From Promethearchaeota archaeon Loki_b31 (GTDB taxonomy: Archaea > Asgardarchaeota > Lokiarchaeia > Sigyniarchaeales > SOKP01), in NCBI GenBank assembly GCA_005222975.1, contig NJBI01000002.1:32001-96000 (forward strand): a DNA stretch of 64,000 nucleotides, read 5' to 3'. The notes under the pieces are model-generated. The model made no database searches. It had not been told where the DNA came from and was given only the letters and a program-made list of their open reading frames with translations. Shown here in pieces: positions 5,972 through 20,515 of this stretch (its first letter is position 1; each line of letters begins with the position of its first letter). A program made the position numbers and the translations under genes.

Positions 5972-7372
5972 CTAAAAACGGGTTTCGTCAATATTGGGCA
6001 TATCCGGTGCGGTTAAAGCTTTTTGAATTTCTTCATACGGTAGCTCGTAATCTACTAAATTGCCATTCATGTATTCTTTGTATGCTAATAAGTCGAAAAA
6101 TCCATGACCACTTAGACAGAATATAATATTCTTCTTTTCGTTGTTTTCTTTAGCTAATAAGGCTTGATCTACTGTTTCTTTTACAGCGTGAGCCGCTTCA
6201 GGTGCGGGTAATATGCCCTCTGTTTTAGCAAACATTAATCCTGACGCAATAGCTTCAGTTTGATGGTGCATAACAGACGAGATTATCTTCTTACTTGATA
6301 AAATTGAAATTATCGGCGCCATACCATGGTAACGTAAGCCTCCTGAGTGAATTGGGCTAGGAATGAAATTATGTCCGAGCGTGTACATTTTTAAAATTGG
6401 AGCTTTTTTCGCAGAATCTCCGTAATCCCATCTGTACTCTCCTTTATTAACGCTTGGACAAGCTCTTGGTTCTACTCCAATGATCTCTATATCAGGGTTT
6501 TTGCCTTGCAGTTTGTCTCTAACGAAGGGTATCATTAATCCTCCTAGATTAGACCCCCCACCCATACATCCTATTAATATATCAGGTTGAATATGAATTT
6601 TGTTAAGTTGAGCTTTCACCTCTTGTCCTATTATCGTCTGATGTAATAGGACAAAATTTACAACGCTACCCAACGAATATCTTGCTTTATCACTTCTCAT
6701 ACTATGCTCTACTGCTTCAGATATAGCTATTCCTAGACTTCCGGGGTGATCTGGATCGTTTTCATAGTAATATTTTCCAGAATCCGTAAGGTTAGAGGGG
6801 CTTGCATGAACTTGTGCATTAAAAGCCCTCATTAATATATTTCTTCCAGGTTTTTGCAAAAAACTAGCTCGTACCATGTAAACCGTACAATTTAAATCGA
6901 ATAAATTGCACCCGTAGGACAAAGCTGAACCCCATTGACCAGCCCCAGTTTCAGTGATCAACTCACTTACTCCATCTCTTTTAGAATAATAGGCTTGAAC
7001 TAAAGCTGTATTTGGTTTGTGTGAACCTGTTGGAGAGACTGATTCGTTTTTAAAAAAAATTTTAATGTCATCGCCTACTATTCCAAGTTCTTTTTCTAAA
7101 CCATAGGCTCTATGAAGAGGGGTGGGGCGGTATGATTTTGCAAAAATCTCCCTTAATTCTTTCGGGATGGGGATTAATGGATCTTGAGAAATTTCTTGAA
7201 GTACACACTCTTTTGGAAATATTGCAAAAGCAAGTTCTGGAGGTGCAGGTTTTCCATCCATTGGATTTATTAAGGGCGTCATAGGAGCAGGTAAATCGGG
7301 TAAAATATTAACCCATTCCTTTGGTAACTCGTTTGGTTCGAGTAAAATTCTTGTTTTATTAAAATCTATCAT
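5972..7372 (-). CDS. trpB2: Tryptophan synthase beta chain 2 (TrpB2, PLP enzyme)
   Basis: RPTPL, SPTGSHKPN (PLP Lys), ETGAGQWG, GGGSN, IHSGGLRYHG, PAPE and SGHG motifs with the TrpB2-type N-terminus. Confidence 0.95.
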   Translation of the reverse strand: MIDFNKTRILLEPNELPKEWVNILPDLPAPMTPLINPMDGKPAPPELAFAIFPKECVLQEISQDPLIPIPKELREIFAKSYRPTPLHRAYGLEKELGIVGDDIKIFFKNESVSPTGSHKPNTALVQAYYSKRDGVSELITETGAGQWGSALSYGCNLFDLNCTVYMVRASFLQKPGRNILMRAFNAQVHASPSNLTDSGKYYYENDPDHPGSLGIAISEAVEHSMRSDKARYSLGSVVNFVLLHQTIIGQEVKAQLNKIHIQPDILIGCMGGGSNLGGLMIPFVRDKLQGKNPDIEIIGVEPRACPSVNKGEYRWDYGDSAKKAPILKMYTLGHNFIPSPIHSGGLRYHGMAPIISILSSKKIISSVMHHQTEAIASGLMFAKTEGILPAPEAAHAVKETVDQALLAKENNEKKNIIFCLSGHGFFDLLAYKEYMNGNLVDYELPYEEIQKALTAPDMPNIDETRF

Positions 7373-7455
7373 ATCATATTCCTTTTTAATATTATTTCAT
7401 CATCTATTTTATTTGATGTCTCATTTTAAGATTGGAGCCCAATTATAATAATGCC

Positions 7456-7473
7456 CAATTGCAAATGCAATTG
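7456..7473. promoter_or_regulatory. Inverted repeat CAATTGC-AAAT-GCAATTG in the trpB2 leader (hairpin or operator)
   Basis: Perfect 7-bp arms; GCCCAATT direct repeat at 7437-7444 and 7453-7460. Confidence 0.45.
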
Positions 7474-7493
7474 AAATTTAAAATTCGATGTTT

Positions 7494-7544
7494 AGAAATA
7501 AAAAGAGCACGAAGTATGGTTTAACCATTGAAAAAGCGTTTTCA
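7494..7544 (-). terminator. Candidate attenuator: small hairpins plus U-tracts after the leader ORF
   Basis: Minus strand reads TGAAAA-CGCT-TTTTCA (overlapping the leader stop), then ATGGT-TAA-ACCAT, then CTCTTTTTATTTCT. Confidence 0.4.
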
Positions 7545-7592
7545 GGAACGCCAAGGCCACTGCCAACAAAAAAGAATATCTTCAGTAACCAT
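7542..7592 (-). CDS. Trp-rich leader peptide MVTEDILFCWQWPWRS (TrpL-like)
   Basis: ATG GTT ACT GAA GAT ATT CTT TTT TGT TGG CAG TGG CCT TGG CGT TCC TGA; same strand as trpB2 and 169 nt upstream of it. TATA-like TTTATAAG at 7643-7636. Confidence 0.7.
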   Translation of the reverse strand: MVTEDILFCWQWPWRS

Positions 7593-7672
7593 AGATATAA
7601 ACCATGCTTTTATATAGTGATATTATTGTCAGAAACTTATAAAGTTAATCCTCTGTGTTAAAAATGTATCTG

Positions 7673-8080
7673 TTATTTCCCTTCAAAAATACTTGCTAAA
7701 TTTTTAGCTGCTACCCTCATTACCTTAACGGTCTTCATTAAAGTGTCAATAAGTGTTCCCGCACATACAATTACTAAACGTCCGGCATTACTAACGATAA
7801 TGTAACCATCTTCTGCCCTCACAATTATTTCACTTAGCTCCTCTTGAAATAATGTTTTGATTGTTGAGCTTCCGGTCATCAGCAAAGCGCTCGCAAGCCC
7901 ACAGAATTGATCCCCGTCTACTTTATATTGCGGAAGCGCCGAAAATGCGATCTGGTACCCTTCTACGCTTACGAGGGCAATGGCTTCTATGTCTGCGTTT
8001 GAAGTAATAAATGTAATTTGAGGGCTAATTTTTTCAATTTCTTCAGGTCCTATTCCTAAGTCGCTTCCAAATTCGATAAT
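7673..8080 (-). CDS. Roadblock/LC7 domain protein (about 135 aa; start uncertain, probably non-canonical)
   Basis: Frame is open from 8083 and encodes DIEAIALVSVEGYQIAFSAL...GLASALL...IIVRAEDGYIIVSNAG. The track ORF (7673..7885) is only the C-terminal half. Confidence 0.85.
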   Translation of the reverse strand: MIEFGSDLGIGPEEIEKISPQITFITSNADIEAIALVSVEGYQIAFSALPQYKVDGDQFCGLASALLMTGSSTIKTLFQEELSEIIVRAEDGYIIVSNAGRLVIVCAGTLIDTLMKTVKVMRVAAKNLASIFEGK

Positions 8081-8328
8081 ACATCACATTCTGGGGTAAT
8101 TTTTTAATTTATTTGAATTTAAAGATTTTACAATATTTTAATTATAATTAATATAATGTTGATACTTTTTATTTTTTTATTTTTTGTTCCTCGTACTTTT
8201 AATAGAGTTACTATTTAAATCTTTTATCTGAAGAAAATAAAATCCTTAAAAAATAATTTCTATTGCTAAAAGTTAAAATAGATCATTATTATTCTATATA
8301 AAATTAAATTTGAAAAAACAACGAAATT

Positions 8329-10635
8329 ATGATAACTACAAGAGAATCAATAAATTTTCAATTTTCTTTAATTTTTGGTTACTCTAGTCCAACAGATTTA
8401 ATAGTTGGTGATGTAATTGGGCCGGGCAAGTTAACTAAAGAAAAAGTTAACGAACTAACGCAAGATGTAATTAAATTCTTGCGTATGTATAACGCTATTC
8501 TAAGAGATTATTCAGGTTCAGAAGTTTTTAGTATTGAATTTGAGTTGTATAATTTTGACGAAAAAGATGCGATGGTTAATATTTATCCAAAATCTATGTT
8601 ATTAATTCCGGGTAAGTTTAAAGACTGTGAAAGTTTATTACTTGCTTTGAAACCGGAAACGGGCTATTTGGATCCTCATAAATCAAGGAAGTCTGTTAAC
8701 CACATTAGTAGACTATTTTTTGAAGTGGAAGAGTTTACGAGTCGGCCCGAATTGGGAACTAGTGATAAAACTCAAGTCCTTAAAAAATTTGCTACGCGTT
8801 TTAGCAAAAAACTTTATGGAGATTTAATTGAAGATAAATGGAATAAAAAATTAATTGGTTTAAGCGTTTCTCTTCCAACCGAGAAAGAAATGTTAATTAC
8901 TTATGCTGCGATAAAATCTGACACCAAATTTCTATGGAATAAAAGACCTATTGAAATGGTATTTTCAAATCATAAATATGAGCGCTTTAAATCTCCATTT
9001 ACGGGCAAATCGATAATTGATCATCTTAAATATACAATATCTGAGCCTAGTGCTAATTTTATAATAGAAAAAACCTTAAAGTTAGGGACTAATCTCCTTA
9101 AATTAGCAAATACGGGGACTATAGATGAAATACAAGATAAGTTAATCTCTTTTTTTATCGTAAAAATCAAAGAAAAACTTGAGAATGTTAAAGAATTACA
9201 TTCTGGAGATTGGGTAATTTCTAATATTGAGAGCATAATAAAAGAATTGGAGTTAAATATTGACAGTTTTTTAAAATACTCTAAAAAATTTCTAACTACG
9301 GGGGAAACTGGAGATTTGTTCGAACTTTTGGATAAATATAACAAATACATTATTAGTATTGCTGGAGATAACCTCAATATTTTTAAAGAACTTTGTCAAT
9401 TTGCAACTGAATCTATTAAGTTATCAATTAGTAGTGGAGAAAGATTTAGAGCTATAGAATTAAGCTCTGTAATCAATTATTTTGCGGAAGTTATTAAGAA
9501 TAGTTTTATGCTAATAATAGAGTCGCTTCCTCAATATCTCTCGAGACGTAGACTAAAAACCTTGACTTATTATTTTAGTGGTAATTTAAGCGAAAAATTC
9601 GATAAAGAACAGAAACCTTCGAAAACTTTAGGTCAAAACATATTAACTAAGTTTGAACAATATTTAATAAGCCAAATAGAAATAAGTCCAAGCGTATTGT
9701 CAAAAGTAAATAAATTCAATGAAGATTCTTTAACAAGAGAATTTAAAAAAATAGTAAATGGGAATATTAAATCGTTCTTTGAAGGGATTAAGTTAAATAT
9801 AAGTGATTTAATTGCCTTTGCAGAAATTCAAATGGAAAAAGACTCGAAGGTAATAAAATCACATATAGTTAAATTTGAGCGATATTCTAACGAACTAAAA
9901 TATTTATTGAATTACATTCTAAGGTACACTACGATAAATCGGTTTTTAAAAGAAGAACCAGATGTTGAAATAACAGACCCAGTAACTTTTTCGAATAGGT
10001 TTCATCGATTCTTAGAAAAGAGAGTTGGTGGGATTGATTTAGCCTGGAAAACTTATGTACTAGAATGGATAAAAGATTATGCTAAGAAATTCTTTAAAAT
10101 AGAAGAAAAAAGAAATTGGTCTTTAGATGAGACCGTATTTGATTTCATAAGATATCTTGAAGAAAGGGAATCAAAAGAGCAAGAACCAGAAAGTTTTCTC
10201 AAGTTATTAGATAAATATATTTTAACCGTCTCAGATGAGATGGAGAAAGAACATTTAATAGATTTTTATAAGCATTATGATTTTTGCATTGATATAAAGA
10301 CAGAATTTCCAAAATACATTCAAAATAATGTTGAAAAGGAAATTAATTTATTAAACATTAATCGAGAAAAAATAATTCCCGTTAAATATTTCAGCATTGA
10401 TGGGGCAGAGCCGTTCTATAATTACATAAAAGAGAGAAAACTGAAGTATTTTTCGAAGTTAATACCAAGGCCTGTATCCTTGATTTTAAAGCATGAATTA
10501 ACAAATGAAGAAAAAGAATTGTTTAATGCTGATTTATATCACACTTTTAATTTTAAATATTGGTATAAAAAAGCCAAATATGATATCGCAGATAATTTTA
10601 AGGAAGTATATCGAGAATGGATAAAAGATTTATGA
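8329..10635 (+). CDS. Large hypothetical, mostly helical protein
   Basis: 768-aa ORF, no motif recognised. Confidence 0.8.
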   Translation: MITTRESINFQFSLIFGYSSPTDLIVGDVIGPGKLTKEKVNELTQDVIKFLRMYNAILRDYSGSEVFSIEFELYNFDEKDAMVNIYPKSMLLIPGKFKDCESLLLALKPETGYLDPHKSRKSVNHISRLFFEVEEFTSRPELGTSDKTQVLKKFATRFSKKLYGDLIEDKWNKKLIGLSVSLPTEKEMLITYAAIKSDTKFLWNKRPIEMVFSNHKYERFKSPFTGKSIIDHLKYTISEPSANFIIEKTLKLGTNLLKLANTGTIDEIQDKLISFFIVKIKEKLENVKELHSGDWVISNIESIIKELELNIDSFLKYSKKFLTTGETGDLFELLDKYNKYIISIAGDNLNIFKELCQFATESIKLSISSGERFRAIELSSVINYFAEVIKNSFMLIIESLPQYLSRRRLKTLTYYFSGNLSEKFDKEQKPSKTLGQNILTKFEQYLISQIEISPSVLSKVNKFNEDSLTREFKKIVNGNIKSFFEGIKLNISDLIAFAEIQMEKDSKVIKSHIVKFERYSNELKYLLNYILRYTTINRFLKEEPDVEITDPVTFSNRFHRFLEKRVGGIDLAWKTYVLEWIKDYAKKFFKIEEKRNWSLDETVFDFIRYLEERESKEQEPESFLKLLDKYILTVSDEMEKEHLIDFYKHYDFCIDIKTEFPKYIQNNVEKEINLLNINREKIIPVKYFSIDGAEPFYNYIKERKLKYFSKLIPRPVSLILKHELTNEEKELFNADLYHTFNFKYWYKKAKYDIADNFKEVYREWIKDL

Positions 10636-16254: not shown

Positions 16255-17907
16255 TTATTCTTCCTTTAAAAATTGAAAAAGTTCATCTATTTGTTTAATC
16301 ACACAAGAATTTGATTCGTATATTCTATTTAAGATGCTTTTAAGCCCGTTAATTGGATGTGTGTTTGGAAATTGTGTAGATTCGTTAAATTGGTTAACAT
16401 AAAATTCTGGAATGAGAAGGACACATTTTTTATAATTGTTCGAACGAATTTTTAAAAACGCTTCTGAATTTTTTATGGAATTTTGATAGAAAACATCATT
16501 AATAGAAGAGGAATAGCACGATTCGTATTGTCCCATTGGAAACGAATCGATTAATTCATATGGAATAATCCCGAAAATTATAGAATAAAAAACCAAATGG
16601 ATTTCATTTCTTTGAATAAGTTGATTGTTATTTATTATATTTAACCAGTTACTCATGGTAGGCGAGTTTTTACCTTTTACATCCAATTCGGGTAAAATTA
16701 TTAGATATTTAGCTTCTTTAGGGGGGCGGTAATTGTTAATTATTTTTTGTTCGAAACGATAGATTAAAGGTCTATCTAAACTTTCGGTACACGCATAAAG
16801 CCTTCCATGATTTTTATATACTTTCTCGTAAATCTCAAAAAAAGGTTTATTCTTTTTTATTAGACTGGCGGCTTTCACTAAATTAGGATGAGCTCGAATC
16901 CTTTGTTCGACTAACTCCCATAGATTTCCTTCTCTTATTGCTTGTCTTATCGTTCTTAATTCGGAGAAAGATAAGTATAAGTTGTGCTTTGCGAGTAATT
17001 CAACCCTTAAATTATCTTCAAAATTTTTAATTTCCTTAGGTGTAAATTTTGAGCAAATTGGGCAATGACACGGGAATTCTTTTAATTCTTCAAGATTTTT
17101 AGTACCTGTTGATAAGGAAAAATAGCGATTTTGCTTTGCAAATAATATATATGCTGCCGAATCCATTAAATCACAACCACACGCGACCGCCAAAGAAAAA
17201 TATTGCGGCAATCCTAAACCAAACATGTGAATTGGTTTGTTGGGAGCAATATACTGTTTTACAGTCAATAACATTTGTGTGGTTAATTCAAACCTGTAAT
17301 TTAAAAACGCTTTTACTATTCCGCCGATAGCGTAGACTCCAAAATCTAATTTACTCATTTCGAGTGAGCTTTCTTTCAGCAAGTCTAAATGTTTTCCTCC
17401 GTGTATTGGACCAAACCAATAGCAATCTGAGCGTGATCTCCTTGAAATATTACCTTTTGCCCTTTGAATAGTAGTTAACACTTTTTCCTTTGCAATATCA
17501 TAGTGATCTTCTAATTGAACTGGTATATCTAATATAACAGAAAAATCAGCTCCTATACTTTCTTGAAATTTCTCAATACTATTCGCATCAATATCTAATG
17601 AATCATTATTATACATATATTGTTGAAACGCACCACTATCGGTTGCTATTATTCCATCATAATTTAAATATTCGTGAAGTCCTTTCTGTAGAACTTGAGT
17701 TCTTAAGTTTTCCTTTTTATAAATAATGTATGCGTTAGTAAAAAGACATTGCGCACCAATTTTCTTTAAATTGAGAGGGGAAATAATGTTTTTGTAAGGA
17801 TGTACTACTGGAAATAAATTAGGAGTAAGCATCTCTTTATTGTTTAATTTAATGCTACCTAAACGCGCTAATGCATCGATATCATTTATTTCAAATTTCA
17901 TATTCAA
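16255..17907 (-). CDS. tgtA: Archaeosine tRNA-guanine(15) transglycosylase
   Basis: TP-x-LFPV, TDSGAFQ, LD-x-P, HMFG, DSAAY, CHCPIC and HNL motifs. ATG at 17901 after GTGAT is the likely start. Confidence 0.93.
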   Translation of the reverse strand: MNMKFEINDIDALARLGSIKLNNKEMLTPNLFPVVHPYKNIISPLNLKKIGAQCLFTNAYIIYKKENLRTQVLQKGLHEYLNYDGIIATDSGAFQQYMYNNDSLDIDANSIEKFQESIGADFSVILDIPVQLEDHYDIAKEKVLTTIQRAKGNISRRSRSDCYWFGPIHGGKHLDLLKESSLEMSKLDFGVYAIGGIVKAFLNYRFELTTQMLLTVKQYIAPNKPIHMFGLGLPQYFSLAVACGCDLMDSAAYILFAKQNRYFSLSTGTKNLEELKEFPCHCPICSKFTPKEIKNFEDNLRVELLAKHNLYLSFSELRTIRQAIREGNLWELVEQRIRAHPNLVKAASLIKKNKPFFEIYEKVYKNHGRLYACTESLDRPLIYRFEQKIINNYRPPKEAKYLIILPELDVKGKNSPTMSNWLNIINNNQLIQRNEIHLVFYSIIFGIIPYELIDSFPMGQYESCYSSSINDVFYQNSIKNSEAFLKIRSNNYKKCVLLIPEFYVNQFNESTQFPNTHPINGLKSILNRIYESNSCVIKQIDELFQFLKEE

Positions 17908-17928
17908 TCACTTCTAGTTCAGAATTTA

Positions 17929-18522
17929 TCAATCAAAAAATTCTTGTAAACGGTTTTCTTGAAATAATTTTTCTAACCAGTCTACTTTCCCTGCGTAATA
18001 CTTTTCTATATCTTTTTCTTTTATAATATCATCCATTATCGTTTTAGTTATTGATTCAATATTTATTTTTGTGGTATTAATTTCTAATATGGGCGTATCT
18101 AATTGTTTATTCATAAAAAATTTTACGCAGTTTCCTAAAATTTCTGATTGAACATTTTCTCTAATTTTTTCTATTTTATATCCTCTTTTTTTTAACCTTA
18201 TAAATAATTCATCTGGATCACATCTCAATATTATAACCCAATCGATATATCGTTCGGGAACAATGTCTGAAAAATGGCTTTCAATTATTAAAAACTCAAA
18301 ATTTTCTTTTCTATATTTTTCTATTAACTTAATTAAAAAGGGAATTAATTTACTTCTATTTATAATAGATGTTTCTCTTTTAGTGTCATAATCTATTATT
18401 AAATTTTCTGAAATTGCTAATTCATTTAAACTAATTACTTTAAGTTTAAGATAATTAGCGATGTTATTTGAAACAGTAGTTTTTCCCGTTCCTGGGGTGC
18501 CAGAGATCACTAAAATTTTCAT
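17929..18522 (-). CDS. Adenylate kinase AK6/Fap7 family
   Basis: SGTPGTGKTT P-loop, IIESH, LRCDP, RL-x2-RGY-x3-KI-x-EN. Confidence 0.9.
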   Translation of the reverse strand: MKILVISGTPGTGKTTVSNNIANYLKLKVISLNELAISENLIIDYDTKRETSIINRSKLIPFLIKLIEKYRKENFEFLIIESHFSDIVPERYIDWVIILRCDPDELFIRLKKRGYKIEKIRENVQSEILGNCVKFFMNKQLDTPILEINTTKINIESITKTIMDDIIKEKDIEKYYAGKVDWLEKLFQENRLQEFFD

Positions 18523-18857
18523 GTTTAAATAAGTAAAATCATCGGTAAAATATAAAATACATTCACCTAATAATAAGAATATCTTAAAATTTAATTACTG
18601 CTAATAAGAATTATCCGTGTTAAAAAAGAAAGAAAAATAAATGGTGGGCTTACATAGAGCGCTAAAGTAAAATGCTCTTATAAGAAGCACCAAATTATGG
18701 ATTAATATAACCTTGACCTGGCATTACTCTCACTTTAAATATTAATTCGGTTAATTTTCTGATAAATTTAAACAAAAGATGGAAATTTTTTTCATCTTTT
18801 CATTAACTAATTTTCATCTTTTTTATTTAAACTTCGAGTATGATCTTTGAATAATAG

Positions 18858-20515
18858 CTAACTTTTTAATTCTTCCAAAACGCTTGGAACTATGATGAAA
18901 GGACACTCAAGATAGTATTTAAGTCTCATCTCCAGAGTTTCAACCGTTCGCATTCCGAACTGCGTTTGATACAGTTTGTTAATCTTTCTCATGGTCGATT
19001 CATCAACTACTTTTATCGACTTAACGTTCTTTAACGCCGGATATTTCTTAATTAGCACTTGGAAACGAAAGATTTGCTCCTCACACCTTATTAGCGTATC
19101 TACGGCACTTTTAAGCCAAGAATGACAATTTTCTGAAACAAGCCTTAATAAGAAGTTTAAAGAACATCGTTTTGCAGGGGAGAGGCGAAATTGATAATAA
19201 AATTTAGTCATGATTCTACGGATTGGGCGAAGCCACGGAAATTTTACCAGTGCTTTTCTTAACGCTTTCTTTTCGAATCGATCCATGTTTATTGGGTTCA
19301 TTAAAACCAAGTATTTTGCGTCTTGGAAACCAGATTTTAAGTCTTCTAATTCTTTGCGAAAAGAACGGATAATTGCCCTCCACGCTCGATAAACCCTTGA
19401 ATTAAAGGTTTTGAGCCCTTTCTCGGTAAGACCGTGTGCGGGAATGAACGACCCGCATTTTTCTTTTAATAGATTCGCACCTTTCCAGTGAGTCAATGAC
19501 AATTCACTCAAAAATTGGATGAAGCGAGTTTCAATCTTAGCAGGGTTGCTTAACGAAAAAAGTGAGCGGAGCTTCAAGTAGATCTGCCAAGCTTTTTTAG
19601 AATCGGCAAATTTTAATTCCCTTTGCTTGTTATTCCGTTTTTTCGCTTCAAACTCTAAAGAAAGGCGTCCTAAGGACGACAATTCCTGAATTTCATCTTG
19701 ATATTTTTCGTTTTTAAGCCTCGTTAACTCTTTTAATAAGCCCCTATTTAAAAGTTGAGGTGCGTGGAAGGCACATTTTAGAATTTGCTCTTCGTTAAAA
19801 AATTGTTTCACGCCAGCTTCAAGGCGGGCGGAAAAATCAATAGTCACGTAATTGATTGGTCCTAACCACTCTATTAATTTTTCCACGAAAAATGCCGTGT
19901 CTTCTTCGCTTTCGCTTTTAACTATGGCTCCTGCAAGGTTCTTTTTTGTAACTCGGTCGTTTGCTACGAGTATTCCTTTCTTGTCTACTTTTTTGTTCCC
20001 GTTTTGAGATCGTTTTTTTTTGTAGTCGCCGCTTTAAACGTCCCGTCAATGGAAATGAATCCCGAAAAATCTTTTGGAGGTTCTTCGTTAGAAAAATCAA
20101 CGTTTAATTCGCCCCGTTTTCCCTCTTTATCGACCCATAATTTAACTTCACTAACAGAAACTTCTACGTTATGTAACTCGTTAAGATCCTTAGTTACGCG
20201 ACGAATAGAATCTCCTTCTTTTAATATTCTTAATGTAGCGTATTTTATTACTCCGGGCATGTATGAAGTGCGAGGAGGTATGAGGGGATGCCTGATCGTG
20301 AATGTTTTCTTACAATCCTTACAAATGAATGTTACTTTCTCGTATCTTATCCGCCTACAGATCGTCGGCGTGCCAAGGTCTTGAATTGTTCGCATTTTAT
20401 ACGTTTTGCGTTTAATTTTTTCGCTACCGCAAGAGGGACATTTTTCAGGGAAGAAATCTGCGTCCGAATGCTCGCGAATTTCAACTTCTAACTTATCTTC
20501 GTGTTTTTTTTCCAT
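18858..20515 (-). mobile_element. IS-type DDE transposase (ISL3-like N-terminal Zn finger) in two ORFs joined by a -1 frameshift
   Basis: orfA 20515..19985 has CPSC...CKDC, an HTH and ISIDGTF. The -1 frame is open from the A9 and A-AAA-AAG runs into orfB 19886..18858 (VTIDF, CAFH). Element ends not resolved. Confidence 0.8.

Follow-up and report, generated by a model that had tools for sequence, protein, structure and literature searches.

A putative ribosome-read tryptophan leader ahead of trpB2 in a Loki-type archaeon

The genome of Promethearchaeota archaeon Loki_b31 carries a short tryptophan-rich reading frame in front of trpB2, which raises the question of whether this frame gauges tryptophan and how its signal could reach the gene. 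In the window (the whole stretch of 64,000 nt that was analysed), a first-pass annotation had reported a 16-codon ORF with a cluster of Trp codons 169 nt before trpB2, a TATA-like box and a U-tract at 7507-7494, and had proposed a translated leader gauging Trp-tRNA for trpB2. Ribosome-mediated attenuation is a textbook bacterial mechanism. Archaeal trp control has been described for the DNA-binding regulators TrpY (Methanothermobacter) and Tar/TK0271 (Thermococcus), at transcription initiation (PMC6737238). No archaeal leader-peptide attenuator was found in the literature searched, outside which most subscription papers lay.

The leader ORF, its promoter and trpB2

The reported ORF, TATA-like box and U-tract were all recovered from the sequence (Table 1). 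The Trp codons of the leader ORF are codons 10, 12 and 14 (7565-7563, 7559-7557 and 7553-7551), and its stop codon lies 169 nt from the trpB2 ATG (7372). The regions upstream of 2,220 genes in the genome contain 6,644 uORFs of 6-40 codons; two of them possess three Trp codons within six, and the trpB2 leader is the only such uORF started by ATG. The Trp cluster is therefore not a chance occurrence.

The TTATAA columns of the TATA box are kept across 30 orthologues, and a loose TATA pattern was found 50-65 nt 5' of the start codon in 58 of 67 leaders. Based on standard archaeal spacing, transcription is predicted to start near 7613-7611, just 5' of the helix named P1. A leaderless start from a nearer TATA-like run (~7616-7608) was rejected, because this run is not conserved and the transcript must include the covarying arm of P1 that lies 5' of the AUG. 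This 5' arm of P1 begins with an ATG opening a 7-codon out-of-frame ORF (7605-7582, minus strand) with three Tyr codons; an ATG at the head of this arm is common in relatives. The gene upstream of the leader (8089-7673, minus strand) encodes a Roadblock/LC7 protein. Its frame is open from 8083, no standard start was found for the N-terminal half, and the domain match starts at residue 26 of the open frame.

Table 1. Features of the leader and of trpB2 in the window
Feature	Coordinates	Strand	Description
BRE-like element and TATA box	7636..7650	-	TATA TTTATAAG at 7643-7636
P1a 5' arm	7598..7605	-	Upstream of the AUG; pairs with 7523-7516
Leader ORF	7542..7592	-	ATG at 7592, TGA ending at 7542; 16 codons, MVTEDILFCWQWPWRS
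P2 helix	7555..7590	-	7590-7583 with 7562-7555; spans the first coding bases and the second Trp codon
P3 hairpin	7535..7552	-	5' arm contains the last Trp codon; loop contains the stop codon
P1b 3' strand (CAU/CAA)	7525..7530	-	Predicted to pair with the start codon; from conservation
P1a 3' arm	7516..7523	-	Closes the junction; from folding and covariation
U-rich, G-poor linker with U4+ tracts	7458..7513	-	Includes 7507-7494; candidate aCPSF1 loading/termination zone
P4 hairpin	7416..7457	-	3-nt bulge, internal loop, 5-nt loop; ends ~30 nt 5' of the Shine-Dalgarno
Shine-Dalgarno-like AAGGA of trpB2	7380..7384	-	From sequence
trpB2, stand-alone tryptophan synthase beta	5972..7372	-	466 aa; TIGR01415, 575.7 bits, above cut-off

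The naming of the downstream gene as trpB2 likewise held, given its above-cut-off match to TIGR01415. With indole and a serine donor as substrates, TrpB2 builds Trp on its own. The genome is 92% complete, and no Trp-making gene other than trpB2 was found in it; searches for trpA, trpE and trpC were negative, and the trpE family was present in none of the 39 genomes of the genus searched. Two beta-eliminating lyases are encoded on contigs C63 (12867-14243) and C61 (72744-74357), of which the C63 lyase scores best as tyrosine phenol-lyase/tryptophanase-like, a possible source of indole for TrpB2. Neither trpS nor the two tryptophanase/tyrosine phenol-lyase-like genes of the genome possess a Trp leader. 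Close relatives of the TrpB2 protein are encoded in Promethearchaeota MAGs, which places the host among the Loki-type Asgard archaea. A protein 100% identical to TrpB2 is encoded on JAGMEL010000010.1, a 1.8 kb contig of a WOR-3 bacterial MAG, where it is most likely a binning contaminant.

Conservation of the reading frame and the RNA fold

Trp-rich uORFs in orthologous leaders, the check proposed with the first-pass annotation, are present and in frame. They were found before trpB2 at 30 of 30 same-genus loci (74-100% protein identity), about 197-229 nt upstream of the gene and with an ATT start in one case, and at 18 of 20 trpB2 loci in further families of the order and class, single-contig genomes among them, vs 2 of 20 in the reverse-strand control; the genomes compared are related and these counts are not independent. 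The two loci lacking a Trp uORF, L044 and L046, both belong to family f6. Among the loci with a Trp uORF is the trpB2 leader of a Loki-type archaeon in culture. In other Asgard classes the Trp uORF was detected at 12 of 40 loci vs 3 of 40 on the reverse strand, and is thus patchier outside the class, with part of the signal at background.

A covariance model of the leader matches 93 of 141 genomes of the class and 92 of 117 other genomes of the family, mostly with one match each. This family model barely reaches other families, in which the folds are unrelated and only the Trp uORF is shared. A W-[P/A/R]-W motif recurs in distant leaders. Forty of the matches were read: twenty-seven precede trpB2, eight precede a trpD-trpC-trpF-trpB-trpA-trpE-trpG operon and one precedes trpA-trpE-trpG, while the remaining four correspond to a decayed copy, a Phe-rich copy and two weak false matches. 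A related leader is also present before five stand-alone trpE genes, and operon-internal trpE genes have no leader of that kind. What the element tracks is therefore the first position of trp transcription units, and not one particular gene.

The Phe-rich copy (L122:3040-3169, minus strand; genome G106, contig C17) has the same RNA fold (E 1e-10) and a uORF with six Phe and two Trp codons. The ORFs that follow it are not trp genes (71 aa with no family; 347 aa with a CxxCxxCC domain), and this copy may be a Phe/Trp variant separated from its gene or may result from misassembly. In the decayed copy (L127:230-351, plus strand; genome G088, contig C96) the first Trp codon is TAG, P4 is broken and no trpB2 lies downstream; the same genome keeps an intact leader and trpB2 elsewhere (L126). 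The RNA models R1 and R2 gave no second significant copy in the Loki_b31 genome.

A combined sequence and structure alignment was made of 67 leaders. In all 67, the P3 Trp codon stands 36, 39 or 42 nt from the start codon, always a multiple of three, and the start codon is ATG or GTG in 66. Indels of 3 and 6 nt occur inside the frame, and indels of 1-2 nt just outside that stretch. TGG was counted 244 times in frame in the leaders of the family, vs 7 and 5 times in the other two frames. Leaders have 2-6 Trp codons; those of the family are 15-24 codons long, and those of other families reach about 35. Within the family the W-x-W-P-W-R motif varies fairly little; the non-Trp residues drift, and no third-position excess of changes was detected in codons 2-5. 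The Trp codons are separated by Gln, Pro and Arg codons whose nucleotide sequence is fixed (CAG in 49 of 50 cases vs 18.5% genome-wide), which points to RNA pairing. In L010-L015, a 2-nt deletion after the last Trp codon shifts the stop seven codons downstream, into the P1 3' strand, so the position of the stop is not fixed. Read from the alignment, this is the pattern of an attenuator leader, where just the RNA fold and the cognate codons count, rather than that of an arrest peptide.

The first 103 nt from the predicted start site fold as a three-way junction, P1-P2-P3 (MFE z = -3.84; 0 of 200 shuffles as stable), with the second and last Trp codons and the stop falling inside the conserved helices P2 and P3. 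P3 is the best supported helix, paired in 91-94% of cells and with several compensatory changes. P2 is paired in 74-76% of cells. RNAalifold unaided finds P3 alone, which marks P1 and P2 as the weaker helices. In P1a, one pair changes from G-C to A-U in 9 of 31 training sequences and in 12 of 36 further leaders; the alignment of these 36 was fitted to the model, and the kinship of the sequences inflates covariation counts. P1b consists of a U-A pair (31 of 31 and 36 of 36) and a G-C or G-U pair (30 of 31 and 36 of 36), and being invariant it has no covariation support. In P1b the AUG is predicted to pair with a nearly invariant CAU 3' of the stop, which would bury the start codon.

The first-pass annotation had missed the three-way junction and the hairpin P4. 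Its TGAAAA/TTTTCA and ATGGT/ACCAT hairpins are present as sequence and were discarded as a conserved switch, since 31 orthologues showed only two double-change pairs, a number reached in 463 of 500 shuffles. The AACCATA arm had been paired with TATGGTT at the leader start; its conserved partner is instead 7605-7598, 5' of the start codon.

The U-rich linker, P4 and the possible output

Across 61 leaders the linker is about 55 nt long, with 50% U and 6.7% G, a mean of 2.54 U4 tracts per 55 nt, and at least two such tracts in 87% of leaders. The U4 background, taken from this one genome, is 1.40 and 40% at the 3' ends of convergent genes and 1.06 and 28% in 5' regions. The linker is richer in U4 tracts than real gene 3' ends of this genome. 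aCPSF1 needs no more than two U4 tracts to bind, this being its minimal site, and in vivo a Loki aCPSF1 recognizes U4 tracts in a Methanococcus terminator reporter (PMC8716108). The aCPSF1 gene is present in the genome (TIGR03675, 879 bits).

P4 shows double changes at 8 of 13 pairs, which was reached in 1 of 500 shuffles, and possesses invariant loop and stem bases. It gave one match per genome, beside the leader, before trpB2 and trpD operons alike. The segment 7436-7420 (minus strand) inside P4 includes a nearly invariant CCAA. Several other readings of P4 are less favoured. In this genome the segment can be drawn as a tRNA-Trp anticodon-arm mimic (5-bp stem, 7-nt loop), perhaps a switch or a TrpRS site, but covariation favours the other register. 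A second promoter or a DNA palindrome is less likely, as changes on the sense strand favour G-U over A-C pairs. A second tiny ORF from the ATG inside P4 is not conserved, and the long-range pairing of the leader 3' strand with the P4 CCAA has a probability near 0.

From the conserved leader ORF, the start-hiding fold, the aCPSF1-like U-rich stretch and the aCPSF1 gene, we infer leader translation, stalling, the direction of control, a termination output and aCPSF1 as its effector. The conservation of the frame and its tie to trp genes indicate that the ribosome very probably senses Trp at the leader. The combination of these four elements favours a Rho-like design, and on balance we lean towards the whole mechanism, a ribosome-read Trp attenuator with factor-dependent aCPSF1/FttA termination as output. 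Transcription would begin just 5' of P1, and a ribosome would initiate at the leader AUG. With ample Trp-tRNA, the ribosome would pass the UGG codons, stop and depart, and the vacated leader would fold into the P1-P2-P3 junction, burying the AUG and blocking reloading. aCPSF1/FttA could then bind and cut the ribosome-free linker, ending transcription before trpB2, and P4 may serve as a hairpin that causes pausing or binds a protein. Under Trp-tRNA shortage, the ribosome would stall on UGG and the junction could not fully form. The nascent RNA would stay ribosome-bound, possibly Spt5-coupled, aCPSF1 would be kept off, and trpB2 would be made, giving Trp from indole.

To follow the fold through these states, 61 leaders were folded free or with a ribosome-sized block at the first Trp codon, the last Trp codon or the stop. 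The median probability of P1 was 0.74 in the free state, 0.40-0.52 with a stalled ribosome and 0.09 with the ribosome at the stop; these modelled values would also fit P1 as a read-through form, formed during stalling and lost with the ribosome at the stop. Pairing of the linker did not change across the four states (mean unpaired 0.49-0.50). Protection of RNA 40-95 nt from the stalled ribosome would thus rest on the coupling argument, and direct evidence for archaeal transcription-translation coupling has been called scarce in a 2025 review (PMC13681488). In Streptomyces ilvB, altering similar regulatory codons was without effect (PMC1262725), which counts against a codon-sensing model.

Two alternatives keep the Trp leader and change its output. 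The position of the ribosome could set translation or stability of the trpB2 mRNA instead of the release of RNA polymerase, for example through a P4-binding protein, or by cutting of the linker, after which P4 would protect the 5' end so created. That P4 covaries, has invariant bases and accompanies the leader would suit such a role, and aCPSF1 is a nuclease, so cleavage need not equal termination. Nevertheless, P4 ends about 30 nt 5' of the Shine-Dalgarno here and lies farther from it in trpD operons, pairing of the leader 3' strand with P4 is near 0 in all ribosome states, and no helix sequestering the Shine-Dalgarno was found; we regard this output as unlikely. Next in rank, and unlikely as well, is a classical hairpin attenuator, with a ribosome that toggles antiterminator and terminator and factor-free release at a hairpin followed by a U-run. 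Candidate terminators are P3 with the U5 at 7534-7530, which a terminator scan flagged as terminator-like, or the whole P1 helix with the U-tract; two partners are possible for the 3' arm 7523-7516, and in the folding runs P1 varies with ribosome position. However, the U-run after P3 is not conserved, P3 with U5 was flagged in this genome alone, the alternative hairpin has only 2-4 bp and no covariation, the U tracts of the linker are not covered by a helix in any of the four states, and no Rfam attenuator matched. The caution of the first-pass annotation against a classical 2:3/3:4 switch was thus well placed, as no conserved terminator/antiterminator pair was found, and among its three options the U-tract/FttA route is the best supported, the linker having features of an aCPSF1 site.

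The same annotation had considered TnaC-like arrest as plausible, in which the nascent peptide would bind free Trp or indole in the exit tunnel and stall at the stop. The constancy of W-x-W-P-W-R in the family and the W-[P/A/R]-W of distant leaders are what an arrest peptide would lead one to expect. Against it, the number and spacing of the Trp codons, the length and the stop position all vary, codons 2-5 have no third-position excess, and the codons between the Trps are fixed as nucleotides. In addition, the targets here are biosynthetic, whereas TnaC induces a catabolic gene, and the arrest reading is accordingly disfavoured as very improbable. We give just as little credence to an untranslated element, with UGGCNN repeats forming a TRAP-like protein site or a ligand-binding RNA and the ORF being incidental. 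The repeats are indeed periodic over six bases, and both the multi-stem junction and the nucleotide-level conservation would agree with such an RNA. Yet the start codon is kept in 66 of 67 leaders and the frame in all 67 despite 3- and 6-nt indels, no TRAP family was found in the 92%-complete genome, other families with unrelated folds retain only the Trp uORF, and the candidate Leu and Ile leaders obey the same logic.

Leucine and isoleucine leaders and comparison with known systems

Cognate-codon leaders at other amino-acid genes, a search also proposed with the first-pass annotation, were looked for at two genes of this genome, with a Leu-rich uORF before leuS and an Ile-rich one before ileS. 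The leuS uORF (contig C78, 229-241 nt upstream; leuS 16962-19862, plus strand) has 28 codons with nine Leu in the last twelve, and ranks fifth in the genome-wide ranking of amino-acid clusters. The ileS uORF (contig C38; ileS match 6120-8570, plus strand) has 24 codons with seven Ile in the last twelve. By their sequences, both are candidate leucine and isoleucine leaders of this genome.

Similar to bacterial trpL (E. coli trp; Rfam Trp_leader; actinobacterial leaders, PMC1262725), the trpB2 leader is a short ORF with a UGG cluster near its end, before trp genes, with Trp codons within competing helices and selection on the cognate codons only, and it is accompanied by candidate leaders for other amino acids at aminoacyl-tRNA synthetase genes. 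Unlike trpL, it belongs to an archaeal host with a TATA promoter, has no match in sequence or fold, lacks a conserved GC-rich terminator with poly-U, shows no evident antiterminator, and possesses an AUG-burying three-way junction, a long U-rich linker and a downstream hairpin. The Rfam leader families, including T-box, gave no matches at E up to 5. Since neither a conserved intrinsic terminator nor an Rfam match was found, we do not file the element as a classical attenuator, even though its sensor is trpL-like.

A leader ORF followed by an unstructured pyrimidine-rich stretch is also found in E. coli tna, with TnaC and Rho, and in the proposed Rho-dependent mycobacterial cys leaders (PMC1262725). 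These systems share with the trpB2 leader the lack of an intrinsic terminator and, as we would read our locus, a termination factor gated by ribosome position. The factor here would be the nuclease aCPSF1/FttA and not Rho. In contrast to TnaC, the signal appears to be Trp-tRNA shortage rather than peptide-bound free Trp, with the direction of control opposite to that of tna. TrpY and Tar/TK0271 share pathway and signal with the trpB2 leader, but act at initiation. Xie and Reeve reportedly suggested in 2005 that trpY, through its one Trp codon at position 2, might sense charged tRNA; that codon sits in a regulator gene, whereas the trpB2 leader is a leader peptide in a structured RNA.

There is about an even chance that Loki-type Asgards run a set of attenuators (Trp, Leu, Ile) in which a stalled ribosome blocks aCPSF1/FttA in a U-rich linker. 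The leader module (230 nt) bears on whether archaeal transcription and translation are functionally coupled, which is an open question (PMC13681488). If this set exists, transcription-translation coupling would have its first demonstrated natural use in archaeal gene regulation, and a CPSF73-family nuclease, homologue of the eukaryotic 3'-cleavage nuclease, would play the role of Rho. The leader would likewise place uORF-based sensing of amino acids in the archaeal lineage nearest to eukaryotes.
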